Assembly: GCA_027077325.1 (NCBI GenBank)
Contig: JALTGF010000019.1
Span: forward strand, 1-38,954
Direction: 5' to 3'
Length of the DNA: 38,954 bases
Origin: an archaeon
GTDB lineage: Archaea > Undinarchaeota > Undinarchaeia > Undinarchaeales > JALTGF01
The position numbers and the translations under genes are program-made. A model generated the notes under the pieces. That model ran no database searches and had not been told where the DNA came from. It saw only the letters and a program-made list of their open reading frames with translations. Positions 1-13,331 of the stretch are shown here, one piece after another. Within the stretch, counting starts at the first letter, position 1; each line of letters opens with the position of its first letter.

Positions 1-311
1 CTAGAGGTTTCAGAAAATTTTGAAATAAATTCCTCTTTTGAGATTTCAATTGGCTCAATTTCAGAATCCAACAGTTTTAGGATTTTATCATATGTACAAT
101 TTTTCTGCGTTTCTTTTGTTAGTTTAAGGATTTTCTTTGAGAGATTAACTGCCTTTTCTTCATTTTCTAGATTAAGACCTTCTTCAACACCACCCCACAT
201 AGAAGATCCCCTAAATTTATTAATCTTTTGAAAAAGTTTGTCAACCTCATTTACATTTGATAATTTTTCAAAAAGGTCTGGGATTTTATTTGAAGTATAT
301 TTTAAGATCAT
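1..311 (-). CDS. hypothetical protein (C-terminus cut by the window edge)
   Basis: Minus-strand frame is open from the ATG at 311-309 (MILKYTSNKIPDLFEKLSNVNEVDKLFQKINKF...) to position 1. It is absent from the ORF track because it has no stop in the window. K/E-rich composition matches neighbouring genes. No family recognised. Confidence 0.4.
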   Translation of the reverse strand, partial: MILKYTSNKIPDLFEKLSNVNEVDKLFQKINKFRGSSMWGGVEEGLNLENEEKAVNLSKKILKLTKETQKNCTYDKILKLLDSEIEPIEISKEEFISKFSETS

Positions 312-347
312 TGGTGTGTTTATGAAAAAAGATGTATTTAAAAATAG

Positions 348-464
348 TGCCCCCGATGGGAATTTCAGCAAGCAGAGCGCTGATCGCGCACTCGTGCTCT
401 GCATTTGAACCCATGTCTTCGCCGTGAGAGGGCGAAATGATTGACCGGACTACACCACAGGGGC
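348..464 (-). tRNA. tRNA-Glu(CUC) interrupted by a 42-nt T-loop intron
   Basis: Minus strand: acceptor GCCCCTG/CGGGGGC (one G-U) plus discriminator A. D-arm GGTGTAGTCCGGTCAATCAT is the archaeal tRNA-Glu signature. Anticodon stem TCGCC/GGCGA, loop CTCTCAC (anticodon CTC). T-stem ATGGG/CCCAT closes only after the insert is removed from TTCAAA^...^T. ORF-track ORF 286..486 lies on top and is not coding. Confidence 0.85.
362..403 (-). other. tRNA intron, T-loop position 59/60, BHB-flanked
   Basis: T-loop TTCA pairs with intronic TGAA (4-bp helix). It is flanked by the 3-nt bulges AAT and ATT, with the T-stem on one side and an intronic GC helix on the other. Internal hairpin GCAGAGC...GCTCTGC. 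The boundary could shift by 1 nt without changing the mature sequence. Confidence 0.7.
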
Positions 465-684
465 AGCTGATGTCAGCTGGCACCATATACTGCGTTCCGC
501 TTGCCTTTAAGTTCTCCCGCGGAAGCAGTATTATTTTCTGCTTTTATTTTCGCCAACATTGAAATCTGATTTTCCTTCCCCATGCTTTCTTTTCTAAAGA
601 AAAGCTGTCTGTTTCTATTTGTGCCAACTTAGGATATTATCTACAAGTAGCAACTAATAAACTTTTCTTTTTTTGTAAAAGCGA

Positions 685-1983
685 TTATGGTCTGAAGCGT
701 TTCATTGTGCGCGGGAAGGAAATTGCATCTTTTATGTTCTTAAGCCCGCAAATCCACGAAATGACCCGTTCGACTCCAACACCATATCCCGAGTGGGGAA
801 CAGCCCCATATTTCCGCAGGTCAAAATACCATTCATAATCACCAGAGCCAGCCCCTTTTTTCTTTAGGTCCTCTTTCATTTGCTTTATGTCATTAGAACG
901 TTCTGAGCCACCGACAATTTCCCGATAGCCCTCCGGGGCAATCATATCAAAGCAAAGAGCAGTTTTTGGATCCTTTGGGTCTGATGGCTTGTAAAATGCC
1001 ATTATGTCCTTTGGATAATTTGTGACAACAACAGGGATTCCAAAATGATCTCCAAGAATTTCTTCCTCCTTTGTGCGGAGGTCCTTCCCCCAGGGGATTT
1101 TCATCCCTTTCTTTTCCAAAATTTTAAGAGCGTCTGTATAGGTGATTGTTGGGTATTCTGCCGTTGCATATTTCTCAAGTAGTTTTATATCCCTTCCAAG
1201 AATCTTAAGTTCAGGTTTGTTTTTTTCAAGCACTTTCTTAATTATAAATTTAATTTCATCCTTTGCAACCTCTGTTATTTCATCTAACTTCATCCATGCG
1301 GCTTCCATCTCGGCCATCCAGAATTCAGCAATATGCATTGCGGTTTTTGATGGCTCTGCCCTAAAAGTAGGTGCAACATCGTATATTTTTTCCAATGCAA
1401 AAATCCCTGCCTCTGCGTAAAGTTGCCAGGACTGCGTCAAATACATAATCTCGTCAAAGTACTTTACTTTAAACAAAGTCATTGTGCCCTCGCAGGCCGT
1501 TGGGGTAAGAATCGGGGGATCGAACTCATAATAGCCACGGCTCCTGAAAAATTCGTGGATTGCACCAAGAACTGTACTCCTTATTTTTAGGATTGCAATC
1601 ATTTTTTGAGAGCGAAGCCAAAGATGTCTTACATCAAGTAAGAATTCTTCACTTAGATCGCGGCCAATTGGGAATGGCTCGGCAAGCCCCACAATTTCCA
1701 ATTCAGAAATGTCAATTTCAAAGCCACCTGGAGCACGGGAGTCTTCGCGAACTTTTCCAGTTAGGGTTAGAGAACTTTCAATCGTAATTTTTTGCGCGTT
1801 TTTAAATGCTTTTTCTCCTTCTTTTGATACTGCCTGGATTATTCCTGAGGAATCACGAATCACTAAAAAAACCTTGTCTTTCAATTCGCGCTTTCTGTAA
1901 ACCCAACCCCGAATAGAAACTTCTTTTCCAACTTTTTCTTTGCTTAGTGTGTCTTTTATTGGGATAAATTTTTTTGCCATCAT
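685..1983 (-). CDS. asnS: asparaginyl-tRNA synthetase (class IIb Asn/Asp family)
   Basis: 432 aa. N-terminal OB fold (VSIRGWVYRKRELKDKVFLVIRDSSG). Motif 2 FRAEPSKTAMHIAEFWMAEME. DYEWYFDLRKYGAVPHSGYGVGVER and the C-terminal FPRTMKRFRP. AEFWM and WYFDLRKYG read as AsnRS rather than AspRS. Confidence 0.8.
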   Translation of the reverse strand: MMAKKFIPIKDTLSKEKVGKEVSIRGWVYRKRELKDKVFLVIRDSSGIIQAVSKEGEKAFKNAQKITIESSLTLTGKVREDSRAPGGFEIDISELEIVGLAEPFPIGRDLSEEFLLDVRHLWLRSQKMIAILKIRSTVLGAIHEFFRSRGYYEFDPPILTPTACEGTMTLFKVKYFDEIMYLTQSWQLYAEAGIFALEKIYDVAPTFRAEPSKTAMHIAEFWMAEMEAAWMKLDEITEVAKDEIKFIIKKVLEKNKPELKILGRDIKLLEKYATAEYPTITYTDALKILEKKGMKIPWGKDLRTKEEEILGDHFGIPVVVTNYPKDIMAFYKPSDPKDPKTALCFDMIAPEGYREIVGGSERSNDIKQMKEDLKKKGAGSGDYEWYFDLRKYGAVPHSGYGVGVERVISWICGLKNIKDAISFPRTMKRFRP

Positions 1984-2728: not shown

Positions 2729-5461
2729 CTATGACTTGAATGGCAAAGATAATACGTATTTACACCTAAGAGCAGCCCGCTTTAGATATTTTACACGACC
2801 AAACCCTTTTTCAGGATAAAGTGTGTTATAATATGCATGAATCCGGACCAAAGCATCTTGCAGTTTTGGATCAACGGTTACTGCATCCCACTCGAAATCA
2901 GCCTCTGCCCATTTGTCAAGAACTTTTACGAAGTTAAGGACTACATTGACATTGTGAGACAAGATTTCATCCTTACTTAAATCCTTGAGTTCTTCTTTAC
3001 GATCAACGGAAACATCCACTGACCATCTACGTCTTAATTTTTGAAGTTTTCTGAGTAAACTTATCGAGTTAGCTCCAAAAGTAAATTGGTCTGGAACCCA
3101 ATGTCTCCCTATTGAGAGGTACTTTGAGACAGAATCCAAGAGTACAATAATGACATCAATTATTTGTTGCGTCTTCTTTTGTAAATCCCAATAGGATTCA
3201 ATAGCATGCTGAACATTTCCATCAAATACCTTATCTAAGACTTCTTTAAGGTTATTTTTTACGAACAGATCACGGGTTATTTCATTAAAAGTGGCATCGG
3301 GAGGGATTCCAAGTTCAATACCAAATAACTGCAATAGCTCTAATTTTGCACTTTTCAAGCTTTTCTCCTGGCTCCAGAACAAAAGATTTCGTTTCTTTAT
3401 TGATGCCTTTACTACATCATTGTACCACTCTTTTGAGACTTCAAGAAAATTATCTACTGACTGAGAGAAGTATTTCACATTTTCCCCATATTGAATAGTT
3501 GCCTTAAATGTTTCAACAATCCCCAGACTGTGTAAACGATTGAGGACAACACGCCCCTGGGGGGAAAGATACCCGCCGCCCCGACTAGATGGAGCAATTA
3601 TCCCAGTTTTTCTTGCAATTTCAAACTTTCCAAGACCATGAGGCTCCTTAGCAAGAGCCAATATAATTTTCTCAGCAAAGGTCAATTCATTCTCTGATTC
3701 TTTTTTATTTACAAACGAAATTCTAGGGTATCCCCATGCCCTTAATGAAGGAAGGTAAACATCATAGTAAAATGAGCGCCCTTTACTTGTTACATAAAAA
3801 CCACGTTCTTTAACTACTAGCCCAGATTCCAAAATCCACTTATCTAGTCTGTACCTTTGCCAAGAATCTTTTTTATTTGCTAATTTCCAAGGGGTCCGAT
3901 TATTCGAAAGCAAAAACAAAAGATAAGCAATTTCATTTTTAGTAACAACATCAGATTGCTTAGTGAGGAAATACTTTTCAAAAAACGTGTCTAGGTCAAC
4001 TTTTAAGGCCTTTAACACCTTTTGAAGGGATTTCCAGATTTTGATTCCTTCTTGAGTAGCATATAATAATTTTAGAGATGAAATGTTTTTATCAATTTTT
4101 TTAGTGATGATTCCAGCATTTTCAAGCCGATGAACGCTAGTTAATAGTTGAGGCAACGCCTTCCCAAAATCAGTCATAAGCTCATTTGTGTACAATGGCT
4201 TTCCATTATTCTGTGCAATCACTACCTTATTTAGAACCCACAACAGATTTCTACAGCCAGAGCCCAAGTTTTCATTGGATGATTCAAAAAAATTATGTGA
4301 CTTTAATTGAGATATAAAATCAAGATAAAGGGTGATTATCTTTGGCTTTTTGTGTAAAAGATTGAGCAATGCCATTCGGCTCATAGTTCCCTGCAAGCCC
4401 TTTTGATTAATCTTTTTTAAAAGAGCATAATATTTTTTCCCTTTCTCTTGAGTTACATATGTTGTTTTAAGATGCTCGACAAATCCTATATGCTGAAATT
4501 TTCTAATTGCAAGTTCATGAACAGGGACGCTGTAATTTTTACACCACCCCCAAAGTTGTGGATGGTCTTTATCAAGTATCTTCTTTAAAGAAAAAACGTA
4601 TTCTTTCGTAAGTTTTTTTGAGCTAATTGGCCAATACTCCATTAGCAGCCTTAAGGTGCACATATCACCCGGTGAAATACGTTTCATAGTATTAGGGAGG
4701 TCTTTTGAGAGTTGCCCAAGGTAATAGTCAGGCTCTCGGTATTTGATAGAGTATGACCCATGCTCAGATTTGACAAGTAAGCTCCCTTTTTTAGAAAGCT
4801 GATAGTATTTTAAAACTTTAGGATTTATGTTTGGTGGCTCATAATTTTGGATGATGCCCCCATCCTTTAATGTTTCTAGCAGGGTAAACTTCCGTTTATT
4901 AATGCTATACATTGGTTTAACAAGAACTAGTTGTGGGAATAACTTCGTAAAATCTTCAAAAGGAAAAGGGTTTAATTCATGTTTCTTAAAATTATCTGAG
5001 ATTCGCTCCATAAACCCCAAGCGAGTGTGGCCGATCCCAAGATAAAAAAAGAGAGTTTCCCCATGAAGGCCTATAACATATCCGTTTATGCCTTGCCTCC
5101 AATTATCTATAAGATTATTCTGGAGGGGCAGCATTACTTTTTCTACAAAATGCTTTCCAAACCGGGTAAGCTCATAAGTTGTAGGGGGATATTTTTTTAC
5201 AAGCTTGTAGTCAGTTAAAGGAGCATACACTCTGTACAATGCAAGTGATTCAAGTGGCCTTGTATTAGTGATTGTACCTTTTTTATAGAGTTGCATTAAG
5301 AAATCCCATCGTTCATAAGATGCCAAAACAGAGTACAACATTATCTGGGCTTCTCTAAGAGTCCGTATTTCACTTAAAGGTTTAAATTCAAACGCCATTA
5401 GAATGGATTCCCTATAATTAATTAACCCATTAGATACACATATACATAAGATAAATGCCAT
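2729..5461 (-). CDS. large (about 890-910 aa) protein of tandem winged-helix-like modules, unknown function
   Basis: Long uninterrupted ORF. A recurring wing-like motif Y-x-[LVT]-[TS]-x-x-G occurs at about aa 96, 220, 335, 467 and 556. There is a clear MarR/TrmB-like wHTH at about aa 596-650 (EKIILALAKEPHGLGKFEIARKTG...VVLNRLHSLGIVE). No Walker A motif. Alternative ATG at 5398 (MAFEFKPL...) is equally possible. Confidence 0.7.
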   Translation of the reverse strand: MAFILCICVSNGLINYRESILMAFEFKPLSEIRTLREAQIMLYSVLASYERWDFLMQLYKKGTITNTRPLESLALYRVYAPLTDYKLVKKYPPTTYELTRFGKHFVEKVMLPLQNNLIDNWRQGINGYVIGLHGETLFFYLGIGHTRLGFMERISDNFKKHELNPFPFEDFTKLFPQLVLVKPMYSINKRKFTLLETLKDGGIIQNYEPPNINPKVLKYYQLSKKGSLLVKSEHGSYSIKYREPDYYLGQLSKDLPNTMKRISPGDMCTLRLLMEYWPISSKKLTKEYVFSLKKILDKDHPQLWGWCKNYSVPVHELAIRKFQHIGFVEHLKTTYVTQEKGKKYYALLKKINQKGLQGTMSRMALLNLLHKKPKIITLYLDFISQLKSHNFFESSNENLGSGCRNLLWVLNKVVIAQNNGKPLYTNELMTDFGKALPQLLTSVHRLENAGIITKKIDKNISSLKLLYATQEGIKIWKSLQKVLKALKVDLDTFFEKYFLTKQSDVVTKNEIAYLLFLLSNNRTPWKLANKKDSWQRYRLDKWILESGLVVKERGFYVTSKGRSFYYDVYLPSLRAWGYPRISFVNKKESENELTFAEKIILALAKEPHGLGKFEIARKTGIIAPSSRGGGYLSPQGRVVLNRLHSLGIVETFKATIQYGENVKYFSQSVDNFLEVSKEWYNDVVKASIKKRNLLFWSQEKSLKSAKLELLQLFGIELGIPPDATFNEITRDLFVKNNLKEVLDKVFDGNVQHAIESYWDLQKKTQQIIDVIIVLLDSVSKYLSIGRHWVPDQFTFGANSISLLRKLQKLRRRWSVDVSVDRKEELKDLSKDEILSHNVNVVLNFVKVLDKWAEADFEWDAVTVDPKLQDALVRIHAYYNTLYPEKGFGRVKYLKRAALRCKYVLSLPFKS

Positions 5462-5707
5462 ATAAAAGTCTTTTTACTGATATAAGATAAAAACCTTTAA
5501 ATACCTTTTAGAATTAATTAGAAGTATATAGCAATTTAAACTCACGCAAATCTTCATAAACCGCCAGCGGCAACTGGCAAATCAGATTTGCAATCGCGTG
5601 TATTTTTAGATAGCCCTATTCAGGAAATTATCCATCGATTTCTAAGAGGAAGTAATTCAAGGTAGTATAAAAATGTTTCGAAAATATAAAAATGGGAGGT
5701 TGAGTCG

Positions 5708-6835
5708 ATGGAGTTTACAATAGGAAATGCCATAAATGACCAAATTCCGGCAGAGGTTGTTGAAAGGCAAGAAAATAAAGTTGGCCGGGCAAGGATAGTT
5801 GTTATTGGAGCAGGTGGCGCTGGCAATAATTCAATAACTAGGCTAATGAATATGGGAGGCGTAAAAGGGGCTAAATCCGTTATTGTCAATACAGATATGC
5901 AACATCTTGAAATTTCAAAAGCAGATTCAAAAATATTAATTGGATACAACATAACTGAAGGACTTGGCGCGGGGGGGTTTCCAGAAGTTGGAAAACAAGC
6001 AGCAGAGTCTAGCAGAAAAGAGCTAAGAGAAGTCCTTAAAGGGGCACACCTAGTATTTTTAACATGTGGTCTTGGCGGCGGCACGGGAACTGGTTCACTC
6101 CCAGTAATTGCAGAAATTGCAAAAAAAGAAAAAGCAATTGTTGTTGCAACCGTTACAACACCATTTGATCTTGAAAAGGCAAGATTGGCAAAAGCAGAAG
6201 AAGGCTTGCTTGAACTAAAACAAAATGCAGACACTGTTATTGTAATAGACAACAACAAACTCGTAGATTACTATCCTAATCTTCCATTAAACCAAGCATT
6301 TGCGATGGCTGATGAATTGATTGCTAGCATGATTAAGGGGATTACTGAAACAATAACAGTTCCAAGTTTGATGAACCTTGATTTTGCAGATGTTAAAACA
6401 ATTATGACACAAGGCGGCGTTGCAATGATTGGCGTTGGCGAAAGTGACACTCAAAACAAGGTGCATGAAGCCGTTGAAAATGCGTTAAAGCACCCACTTT
6501 TAGATGTTGACTATCGGGGCGCAAACGGTGCACTAATTCATATAACCGGTGGACCAGAAATGACACTTGCACAGGTAACTGAAGCAGGAGAAATAATCTC
6601 AAATTCAATGAGCCCAGATGCACAGATAATTTGGGGCGCAAGAGTAGACCCGGATATGGGTGGAAAGATTAGGGTGATGACCATAGTAACTGGGGTTCAT
6701 AGCCCAAACATAATTGGAAAAAACAACGGCCTTGGGATAAAAATGATTAAAGCACAAAGCCCAAAGCAAATGGCCAGGGGTCTAGGAGGTGGAAAACCAC
6801 AAGCGCTAAGGGAACTTTCCATAGATTACCTGTAA
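5708..6835 (+). CDS. ftsZ: cell division GTPase FtsZ
   Basis: 375 aa. GAGGAGNN loop and tubulin signature GLGGGTGTGSLPVIAEIAKK. GGGAGGT Shine-Dalgarno sequence 7 nt upstream of the ATG. Confidence 0.95.
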   Translation: MEFTIGNAINDQIPAEVVERQENKVGRARIVVIGAGGAGNNSITRLMNMGGVKGAKSVIVNTDMQHLEISKADSKILIGYNITEGLGAGGFPEVGKQAAESSRKELREVLKGAHLVFLTCGLGGGTGTGSLPVIAEIAKKEKAIVVATVTTPFDLEKARLAKAEEGLLELKQNADTVIVIDNNKLVDYYPNLPLNQAFAMADELIASMIKGITETITVPSLMNLDFADVKTIMTQGGVAMIGVGESDTQNKVHEAVENALKHPLLDVDYRGANGALIHITGGPEMTLAQVTEAGEIISNSMSPDAQIIWGARVDPDMGGKIRVMTIVTGVHSPNIIGKNNGLGIKMIKAQSPKQMARGLGGGKPQALRELSIDYL

Positions 6836-11762: not shown

Positions 11763-13331
11763 ATGAGTAAAGATTACTTGAGGGAGATAATTGAAACCTG
11801 CTTAAAAAAAGAAGTGTCCCAAGAAGAACTTGAAAAACTTAAAATCAGGATTAGCAGAGAGTATAGTTTGAATAGAGTCCCAAGAAACTCTGAAATTTTA
11901 GAGGCGGCTTCAAAAGAAGAGAAGAAAATTTTAAAGCACATTTTATTAAAAAAGCCAACCCGTTCAATTTCAGGAGTGTCTGTTGTAGCAGTTATGCCAC
12001 CTCCAGCTCCATGTCCTCACGGGAAATGCTCCTACTGCCCGCAGGGTCCAAATGCCCCAAGAAGTTACACTGGAAAAGAGCCAGCAACAATGAGAGCAAT
12101 TAGAAACAATTATGATCCCTACTTGCAAGTAAAAAACCGACTTGCTCAATTAAAGGCAATTGGGCACCCAATTGAAAAAGTTGAGTTGATAGTTATGGGC
12201 GGGACATTCACAGCCCAACCAGCAGAAAAACAGGAGGCATTTGTCAAGGGATGCTTTGAGGCAATGGCAGGCAGAAGATTTGAAACTTTTGAAGAGGCGA
12301 AAAAAGCAGTTGAAAAAACAGAGATAAGGCCAGTCGGAATTACTTTTGAAACGCGACCGGACTGGGCAAAAGAGGAGCAAATAAATGAGATGCTCAAACT
12401 TGGAGTCACAAGAGTTGAAGTTGGCGTTCAAAATCCAGATGATAGTATTTACAAAGCAGTTGATCGAGGGCACACTGTAAAGGATGTTATAGAGTCAACA
12501 CAACTTTTGAAAGATTCCGGACTTAAAATAAACTACCACATGATGTTAGGCCTGCCAGGAAGTGATGACCAAAAAGACATAAAGGCATTTAAGAAAATTT
12601 TTGAAGACCCAAACTTTAGGCCAGATATGATTAAGATTTATCCAACACTTGTAATTAGAGGAACGAAACTTTATGAGCAGTGGAAACGCAGAGAGTATAA
12701 GCCAATTACATCAGAACACGCTGCTGATTTAATTGTTGAAATTAAGAAGTTTGTTCCGAGATGGGTAAGGATTATGAGAATCCAGAGAGACATACCTGCA
12801 AACCTAATTGATTCAGGAGTTAAGAGAAGCGACTTAAGAGAACTTGTCAGAGAGAAATTAGTGGAAAAAGGAGTTGAGTGCAAATGCATAAGATGTAGGG
12901 AAGTAGGACATGTGTTTAGAAAAAGGGGATTATTACCCAAAGACATAGAAATTAAAACAATAGAGTATGAGGCTTCAGGCGGGAAAGAATACTTCATAAG
13001 TGCAGAGGACTTTGAGCAAGACATTTTAATTGGGTATCTAAGGCTAAGAATACCATCAAAAAAAGTTTTCAGGCCAGAAATAGATGATTCAACTGCAATT
13101 ATAAGAGAGTTACACGTATATGGCCCAGAGGTTGCAATTGGAAAATCCGCAAGTTCATTAGAATTTCAGCACAGGGGGTATGGGAAGCAGTTACTAAAGA
13201 AAGCAGAAGAAATTGCTCTTAAAAATAAAAAGGATAAAATCCTGGTATTGAGTGGGATTGGAGCAAAAGAGTACTACAGAAGTTCAGGGTATACTAATGC
13301 TGGGGCCTATGTTGGTAAAATGCTAAAATAA
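11763..13331 (+). CDS. elp3: Elp3-family radical-SAM/GNAT protein (tRNA U34 cm5 modification enzyme homologue)
   Basis: 522 aa. VAVMPPPAPCPHGKCSYCP with a C-x4-C-x2-C cluster. C-terminal acetyltransferase fold (FQHRGYGKQLLKKAEEIA). Confidence 0.9.
   Translation: MSKDYLREIIETCLKKEVSQEELEKLKIRISREYSLNRVPRNSEILEAASKEEKKILKHILLKKPTRSISGVSVVAVMPPPAPCPHGKCSYCPQGPNAPRSYTGKEPATMRAIRNNYDPYLQVKNRLAQLKAIGHPIEKVELIVMGGTFTAQPAEKQEAFVKGCFEAMAGRRFETFEEAKKAVEKTEIRPVGITFETRPDWAKEEQINEMLKLGVTRVEVGVQNPDDSIYKAVDRGHTVKDVIESTQLLKDSGLKINYHMMLGLPGSDDQKDIKAFKKIFEDPNFRPDMIKIYPTLVIRGTKLYEQWKRREYKPITSEHAADLIVEIKKFVPRWVRIMRIQRDIPANLIDSGVKRSDLRELVREKLVEKGVECKCIRCREVGHVFRKRGLLPKDIEIKTIEYEASGGKEYFISAEDFEQDILIGYLRLRIPSKKVFRPEIDDSTAIIRELHVYGPEVAIGKSASSLEFQHRGYGKQLLKKAEEIALKNKKDKILVLSGIGAKEYYRSSGYTNAGAYVGKMLK

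Follow-up and report, generated by a model that had tools for sequence, protein, structure and literature searches.

An apparent tandem array of six divergent winged-helix modules in an orphan protein of an uncultivated undinarchaeon

An orphan gene was analysed on contig JALTGF010000019.1 of an undinarchaeal genome assembly (GCA_027077325.1); the window, i.e., the whole stretch examined, comprised 38,954 nucleotides (positions 1–38,954 of the forward strand). The N-terminal ca. 660 residues of the predicted protein appear to form six very divergent winged helix-turn-helix (wHTH) modules of a MarR/PadR/Lrp-like kind (M1–M6), arrayed head to tail with a period of ca. 90–130 residues (Table 1). 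The winged-helix fold is demonstrated for M4 by a structural model and is likely for M1–M3, M5 and M6 on the basis of sequence. From the architecture only, we infer that the product is most probably a lineage-specific, multivalent nucleic-acid-binding protein, with DNA as the most likely ligand, and we hold this with slightly better than even confidence. The fold itself is very well known; what is new is the architecture, a six-module layout in one uncultivated lineage. The source is a 769-kb metagenome-assembled genome (MAG; ca. 76% complete) of uncultivated Undinarchaeota. The organism is assigned to the DPANN archaea because its asparagine-tRNA ligase (AsnRS, encoded by asnS) is closest to those of Candidatus Undinarchaeota MAGs (75%–81% identity), including Ca. 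Naiadarchaeum limnaeum.

The first-pass annotation of this DNA had described a chain of repeated winged-helix units from five wing strings (YELTRFGKHF, YQLSKKGSLL, YVTQEKGKKY, YATQEGIKIW and YVTSKGRSFY), and all five occur where it placed them, at residues 96, 220, 335, 467 and 556, respectively. The signature drawn from these strings, Y-x-[LVT]-[TS]-x-x-G, held in part: as a strict expression it fits two of the five (0.07 expected, P = 0.003 against shuffled sequences), and the other three are left unmatched. A fuller pattern spanning the end of helix 3 and the wing, G-[LIVF]-[LIV]-x(3-16)-Y-x(1-2)-[TS], is found at six sites compared with 0.5 in shuffled sequences, and none of 5000 shuffles reached six. 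The modules M1–M6 were defined from these six sites.

The modules were further compared with known families and solved structures. For five of them (M1, M2, M3, M4 and M6), the best weak Pfam matches were all to wHTH families and fell on the helix-3/wing part, i.e., HVO_A0261_N, PadR, HTH_45, PaaX and IclR, respectively. A hidden Markov model (HMM) of all six modules searched against all PDB sequences returned 19 matches at E ≤ 10, of which ca. 17 were of the MarR/SlyA/PadR type, aligned over helix 3 and the wing (best E = 1.5 × 10−3). Thus, the signature is present in every module and their joint profile retrieves solved wHTH proteins. PDB searches with single modules gave nothing significant, with MarR-family chains leading the weak matches of M1. 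Among six-frame open reading frames (ORFs) of the same genome, the module profiles picked out wHTH proteins (PH0730/CggR-like, MarR/DUF7343-like and Lrp/AsnC), and in a relative the best match was an Lrp/AsnC regulator whose RLENMGII mirrors the RLENAGII of M4.

The most direct support comes from M4. An AlphaFold2 model, for which the other five modules served as the alignment, had a mean predicted local distance difference test score (pLDDT) of 85.1 and a predicted template modelling score (pTM) of 0.73, with the topology H1-b1-H2-H3-b2-wing-b3-H4. The three-helix bundle with a beta-hairpin wing is thus modelled for M4 only. Foldseek aligned this model to MepR (5ffx, 4ld5), MarR (3bpx), AF1382 (2qvo) and SlyA (1lj9) at template modelling (TM) scores of 0.72–0.80 and a root-mean-square deviation of 1.7–2.4 Å (ca. 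2 Å). The earlier proposal of a repeated winged helix is therefore supported directly by the model for M4, and by signature, register and weak profile matches for the other five modules. The ‘clear MarR/TrmB-like wHTH’ placed at residues 596–650 is plausible but not clear, as this part (M6) gave only a sub-threshold match to the IclR-type HTH (E = 0.053). Likewise, the helical C-terminal domain was recovered as helix in a low-confidence model only, and the region matched no family. The stated lack of an enzymatic or NTPase motif was borne out: motif, Pfam and NCBIfam scans of the protein revealed no P-loop, CxxC motif, transmembrane segment or enzyme family.

Several points weigh against a six-headed nucleic-acid binder. 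No curated family threshold in Pfam or NCBIfam was reached, and the best match (HTH_45, E = 0.022) scored 15.2 bits against a cut-off of 25.5. Both the six-site pattern and the limits of the modules were set with the sequence already in view. Local alignments between modules reached z scores of at most 3.3 against shuffled sequences, HMMs built with one module left out never found that module, and the full-length AlphaFold2 prediction made without an alignment was unusable (pLDDT 36.8). The protein is soluble and basic (pI 9.6, net charge +47; each module pI 9.0–9.9), but this is weak evidence given a proteome median pI of 8.7 and the fact that 17% of long ORFs reach pI 9.6. No candidate array of binding sites was found near the orphan gene. 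Moreover, winged helices also serve as protein–protein or RNA-binding modules. Neither the leave-one-out profiles nor the pairwise similarity supports common descent of the six modules. A recent internal duplication was considered as their origin and rejected on the same two results and on the DNA, in which no internal repeats were detected within the gene; the modules are therefore not recent duplicates.

Comparison with the MarR/SlyA/MepR regulators highlights both the kinship of the fold and the difference in layout. The helix-3/strand/wing signature is common to both, and the six-module profile aligns over it. However, those regulators are proteins of 90–150 residues with one head that form homodimers via N- and C-terminal helices, whereas the orphan carries six heads on ca. 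890 residues. It has no Pfam match to the MarR family proper (PF01047 or PF12802) and departs from the one-wHTH architecture of ca. 140 residues, and no ligand-binding or dimerisation region is recognisable in it. As for Lrp/AsnC, the regulator of the related genome mentioned above carries nearly the same RLEN-GII...Y-T-G motif as M4. PadR chains are among the profile matches, and the M4 model has a helix after the wing, as in PadR. The matches to PadR and Lrp/AsnC are nevertheless weak, and the orphan lacks an AsnC-type ligand domain and, unlike a single-domain regulator, is built as an array of repeats.

DNA is the preferred ligand because the closest matches in both sequence and structure are DNA-binding heads. 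In the proposed mechanism, each module, with its signature of helix 3, Gly-hydrophobic strand and wing (Tyr-x-Thr-x-x-Gly), would act as a nucleic-acid-reading head. One molecule could then touch DNA at several sites or along an extended stretch, serving as an architectural or regulatory binder, and the C-terminal part of ca. 230 residues might mediate self-association or the binding of a partner.

Table 1. Positions of the orphan gene, its predicted modules and the adjoining features in the window. Residues are numbered from the first ATG of the 910-codon frame.
Feature	Position	Residues	Strand	Remarks
asnS (asparagine-tRNA ligase)	685..1983		-	TATA-like box in the 67-bp upstream gap; promoter inferred
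Polytopic membrane protein, 212 aa	2051..2689		-	39 bp downstream of the orphan ORF
Orphan multi-winged-helix coding sequence (putative)	2729..5398		-	from Met22, 889 aa + stop; public protein collection entry P0005
C-terminal region	2732..3421	681-910	-	basic; matches no family; helical in low-confidence model only
M6	3422..3688	592-680	-	LTFAEKIILALAK...FEIARKTG...VLNRLHSLGIVE...KYFSQS; HTH_IclR E 0.053
M5	3746..3973	497-572	-	WILESGLVVKERGFYVTSKG; alone no family or PDB match
M4	4010..4270	398-484	-	VHRLENAGII...LLYATQEG; confident winged-helix model; weak PaaX and ArsR matches
M3	4406..4678	262-352	-	IRKFQHIGFVEHLKTTYVTQEKG; HTH_45 match at aa 320-353, E 0.022
M2	4754..5014	150-236	-	LLETLKDGGII...YYQLSKKG; weak PadR match at aa 193-227, E 0.28; no PDB match alone
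M1	5126..5380	28-112	-	wing YELTRFG at aa 96; weak HVO_A0261_N wHTH match, E 0.037; top four PDB matches MarR family, E ~0.3
Possible N-terminal extension, 21 codons	5399..5461		-	MAFILCICVSNGLINYRESIL; probably untranslated
Divergent spacer, orphan ORF/ftsZ	5462..5707		.	246 bp; from ~5475 aligns with the asnS-ftsZ spacer of relatives
ftsZ (FtsZ1-type copy)	5708..6835		+	

The orphan gene itself is real and native-looking. The minus-strand frame at 2729..5461 is open over 910 codons, which at 36% G+C has a chance probability of ca. 1 × 10−29 as estimated from base composition, and the opposite strand of this interval contains no overlapping ORF of at least 80 residues. Codon usage (25th percentile), G+C (0.362) and G+C at third codon positions (0.327) are ordinary for the genome. 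Met22 (5398), the start picked by the gene caller in its 889-residue version, appears likelier than Met1 as the translation start because the first ATG (5461–5459) overlaps a TATA-like TTTTATATG and some of the 63 bases that precede Met22 can be aligned to sequence surrounding the start of asnS in relatives. The protein would thus comprise 889 residues, and 910 at most. A second assembly (L034, an 83-kb scaffold) carries the orphan gene in an identical gene order at 99.94% identity, with nine single-nucleotide polymorphisms (SNPs) relative to the window over 15.4 kb and none in the orphan ORF, where ca. 1.6 would be expected at that density. Five of the nine SNPs are packed into 23 bases (13087–13109) inside an elp3-like gene (11763–13331), a local cluster that points to a patch of recombination or to a variant in the population.

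Searches for homologues retrieved the orphan protein only. A word-indexed search of 5.8 billion proteins and an exhaustive phmmer search of 1.84 billion representative proteins each returned the query itself, and no homologue was detected in 60 related genomes or among IMG/VR viral contigs, phage and plasmid sequences (tblastn), PHROGs and PADLOC. No paralogue was present among the six-frame ORFs of the same genome, and the module profile found no multi-module ORF in genomes of the order. Large ORFs near asnS in relatives were considered as possible counterparts and rejected, since they encode unrelated products, namely a protein of the FG-GAP type and a papain-like protease. The first-pass annotation had counted absence from all relatives against its own reading, and conservation indeed failed, with no homologue detectable. 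These results indicate that the orphan is, by all appearances, either fast-evolving or lineage-specific.

This isolation raises the alternative that the gene is a transient orphan with little or no function, either cargo left behind by a mobile element or virus since lost, or regulator genes that fused and are now decaying. Such an origin would fit a singleton in all homologue searches, as well as the mere ca. 270-bp spacer that relatives have at this position, in a slot whose content differs between lineages. However, stop codons would soon arise without selection in a 2.7-kb frame of AT-rich DNA, whereas this frame is intact, its codon usage and G+C match those of the host genome, and a recognisable domain fold has been kept (M4 model). 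The locus shows no integrase, flanking repeats or adjacent tRNA as signs of a mobile element, and its composition is normal. The ORF is also identical in two strains that carry SNPs elsewhere, although the small number expected within it limits the weight of this point. On balance, a transient orphan is fairly unlikely.

A second alternative retains the winged helices and takes them as protein–protein units, making the orphan a scaffold or adaptor like ESCRT-II, cullin/APC2 or the kite proteins ScpB and MukE, which clamp a kleisin. Winged-helix arrays on a single chain are known from RPC82 of RNA polymerase III (four extended winged helices), the recognition domain of FokI (three winged-helix-like units), ScpB (two) and the ESCRT-II subunits (two each), and domains of this kind, when arranged in tandem on one chain, frequently serve in interactions, as in ESCRT-II, ScpB and RPC82. 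All these arrays resemble the orphan in stacking winged helices on one chain, and the array itself contains no enzymatic domain. A scaffold would further agree with the lack of a significant match between the modules and DNA-binding regulator families, and with a very weak match of the C-terminal part to the kleisin N-terminal family CNDH2_N (E = 0.046). In contrast to the orphan, however, the known arrays have two to four modules and known partners; the orphan has six, ends in an unrelated C-terminal part and lacks both a conserved partner and a homologue, and no sequence or profile relationship to RPC82, FokI, ScpB or ESCRT-II was detected. Pfam searches yielded neither ScpB (SMC_ScpB) nor ScpA at E ≤ 1, and ESCRT-II families (Vps22/25/36, EAP30) were absent both at this level and among the solved structures retrieved. 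No SMC or kleisin family is represented among the genes called within ca. 10 kb, the rest of the genome not having been searched for SMC or ScpA, and no partner gene is conserved beside the orphan. Given that every module is basic and that the nearest sequence and structure matches are the DNA-binding heads of MarR, PadR and Lrp, including DNA complexes, a scaffold is distinctly unlikely. The functional half of the first-pass proposal, a scaffold, chromatin-wrapping or segregation role, is speculative and, unlike the structural half, finds no support.

Within the nucleic-acid-binding explanation, a bolder version can be considered, in which the orphan is a single-chain, six-headed nucleoid organiser that wraps or bridges long DNA, or reads an address composed of as many as six half-sites, and was born in one DPANN genus by fusion and divergence of MarR/PadR/Lrp-like genes. 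This version is speculative and quite doubtful. If true, one polypeptide would stand in for the oligomers that small wHTH chromatin proteins or regulators form elsewhere. More generally, if functional, the protein would be a rare natural case of six winged-helix heads per chain; it would help to explain how fusion gives rise to multivalent DNA readers and how DPANN archaea with reduced genomes come by lineage-specific DNA binders. The weight of these implications is limited by the status of the gene as a singleton in one MAG.

The genomic context was then compared with that of relatives. The same-strand order of the orphan ORF, the membrane-protein ORF and asnS, and the divergent spacer of ca. 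250 bp shared with ftsZ, were both correctly described in the first-pass annotation. In G001 and G002, two genomes from the same family, asnS (80%–81% identical) lies directly opposite ftsZ across ca. 270 bp, and direct adjacency of the two genes also occurs in G005 and G008 and probably in G012, where the neighbouring ORF encodes 429 residues. In G004, two other genes, an AsnA-like tRNA-synt_2 gene and a small ORF, separate ftsZ and asnS; in the present genome, this slot is occupied by the orphan and the membrane-protein gene. The ftsZ-proximal part of the spacer is conserved, and within it lie a nested hairpin and, ahead of ftsZ, a TATA-like box. Thus, the synteny indicates that the orphan gene sits in a variable slot and that the divergent promoter region is the ancestral asnS–ftsZ spacer. 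Because asnS and ftsZ adjoin directly in relatives, the position of the orphan next to ftsZ is functionally uninformative, and the functional tie to ftsZ that had been suggested from the shared control region is not upheld: the conserved partner across the spacer is asnS, and the ftsZ side of the spacer is ancestral.

It follows that a function of the orphan in cell division or chromosome segregation, with its gene co-regulated with ftsZ from the common spacer, is very improbable and largely contradicted by synteny: the gene is divergent from ftsZ across 246 bp and a multi-headed DNA binder could in principle tie the nucleoid to the division site, but this arrangement is confined to the present genome, the hairpin and TATA-like box upstream of ftsZ exist without the orphan gene, and all relatives have FtsZ and none has the orphan gene. 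Since the adjacency to ftsZ is not conserved, the orphan has no bearing on FtsZ-based division.

The hairpin in the spacer (5546–5591) is G+C-rich and nested, with an outer stem of GCAAATC/GATTTGC and an inner stem of GCCAG/CTGGC, and a TTTAAATA box lies upstream on the plus strand. It is kept in the asnS–ftsZ spacer of two genomes of another genus, with one compensatory change of a G-C to an A-U pair in the inner stem, and matched no Rfam family. It might represent a small RNA or form part of the leader of ftsZ.

On the other side of the orphan gene, co-transcription with the membrane-protein gene and asnS is not required because asnS seems to keep its own TATA-like box. The 212-residue membrane protein belongs to no Pfam or NCBIfam family; its homologues, 23%–57% identical, occur throughout the order, with as many as three copies in a genome. 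A conserved two-gene module of the orphan and the membrane protein was considered and rejected: the membrane-protein homologues in the order adjoin RtcB, a Na/H exchanger, TrkH, RNase J and other genes, and the copies linked to asnS lack a big ORF upstream. On three metagenome contigs, the membrane-protein gene immediately precedes another gene, which is asnS in L133, the longest of them, and no big ORF lies upstream of the membrane-protein gene. In several relatives, a truncated, AsnA-like class-II synthetase paralogue (tRNA-synt_2, 287–319 residues) is encoded just upstream of asnS (archaeal contigs L133, 348–2211, and L058, 4908–5771). In L133, the AsnA-like gene is followed by a gene for a tRNA_bind protein, with an AsnC-type regulator encoded divergently upstream.

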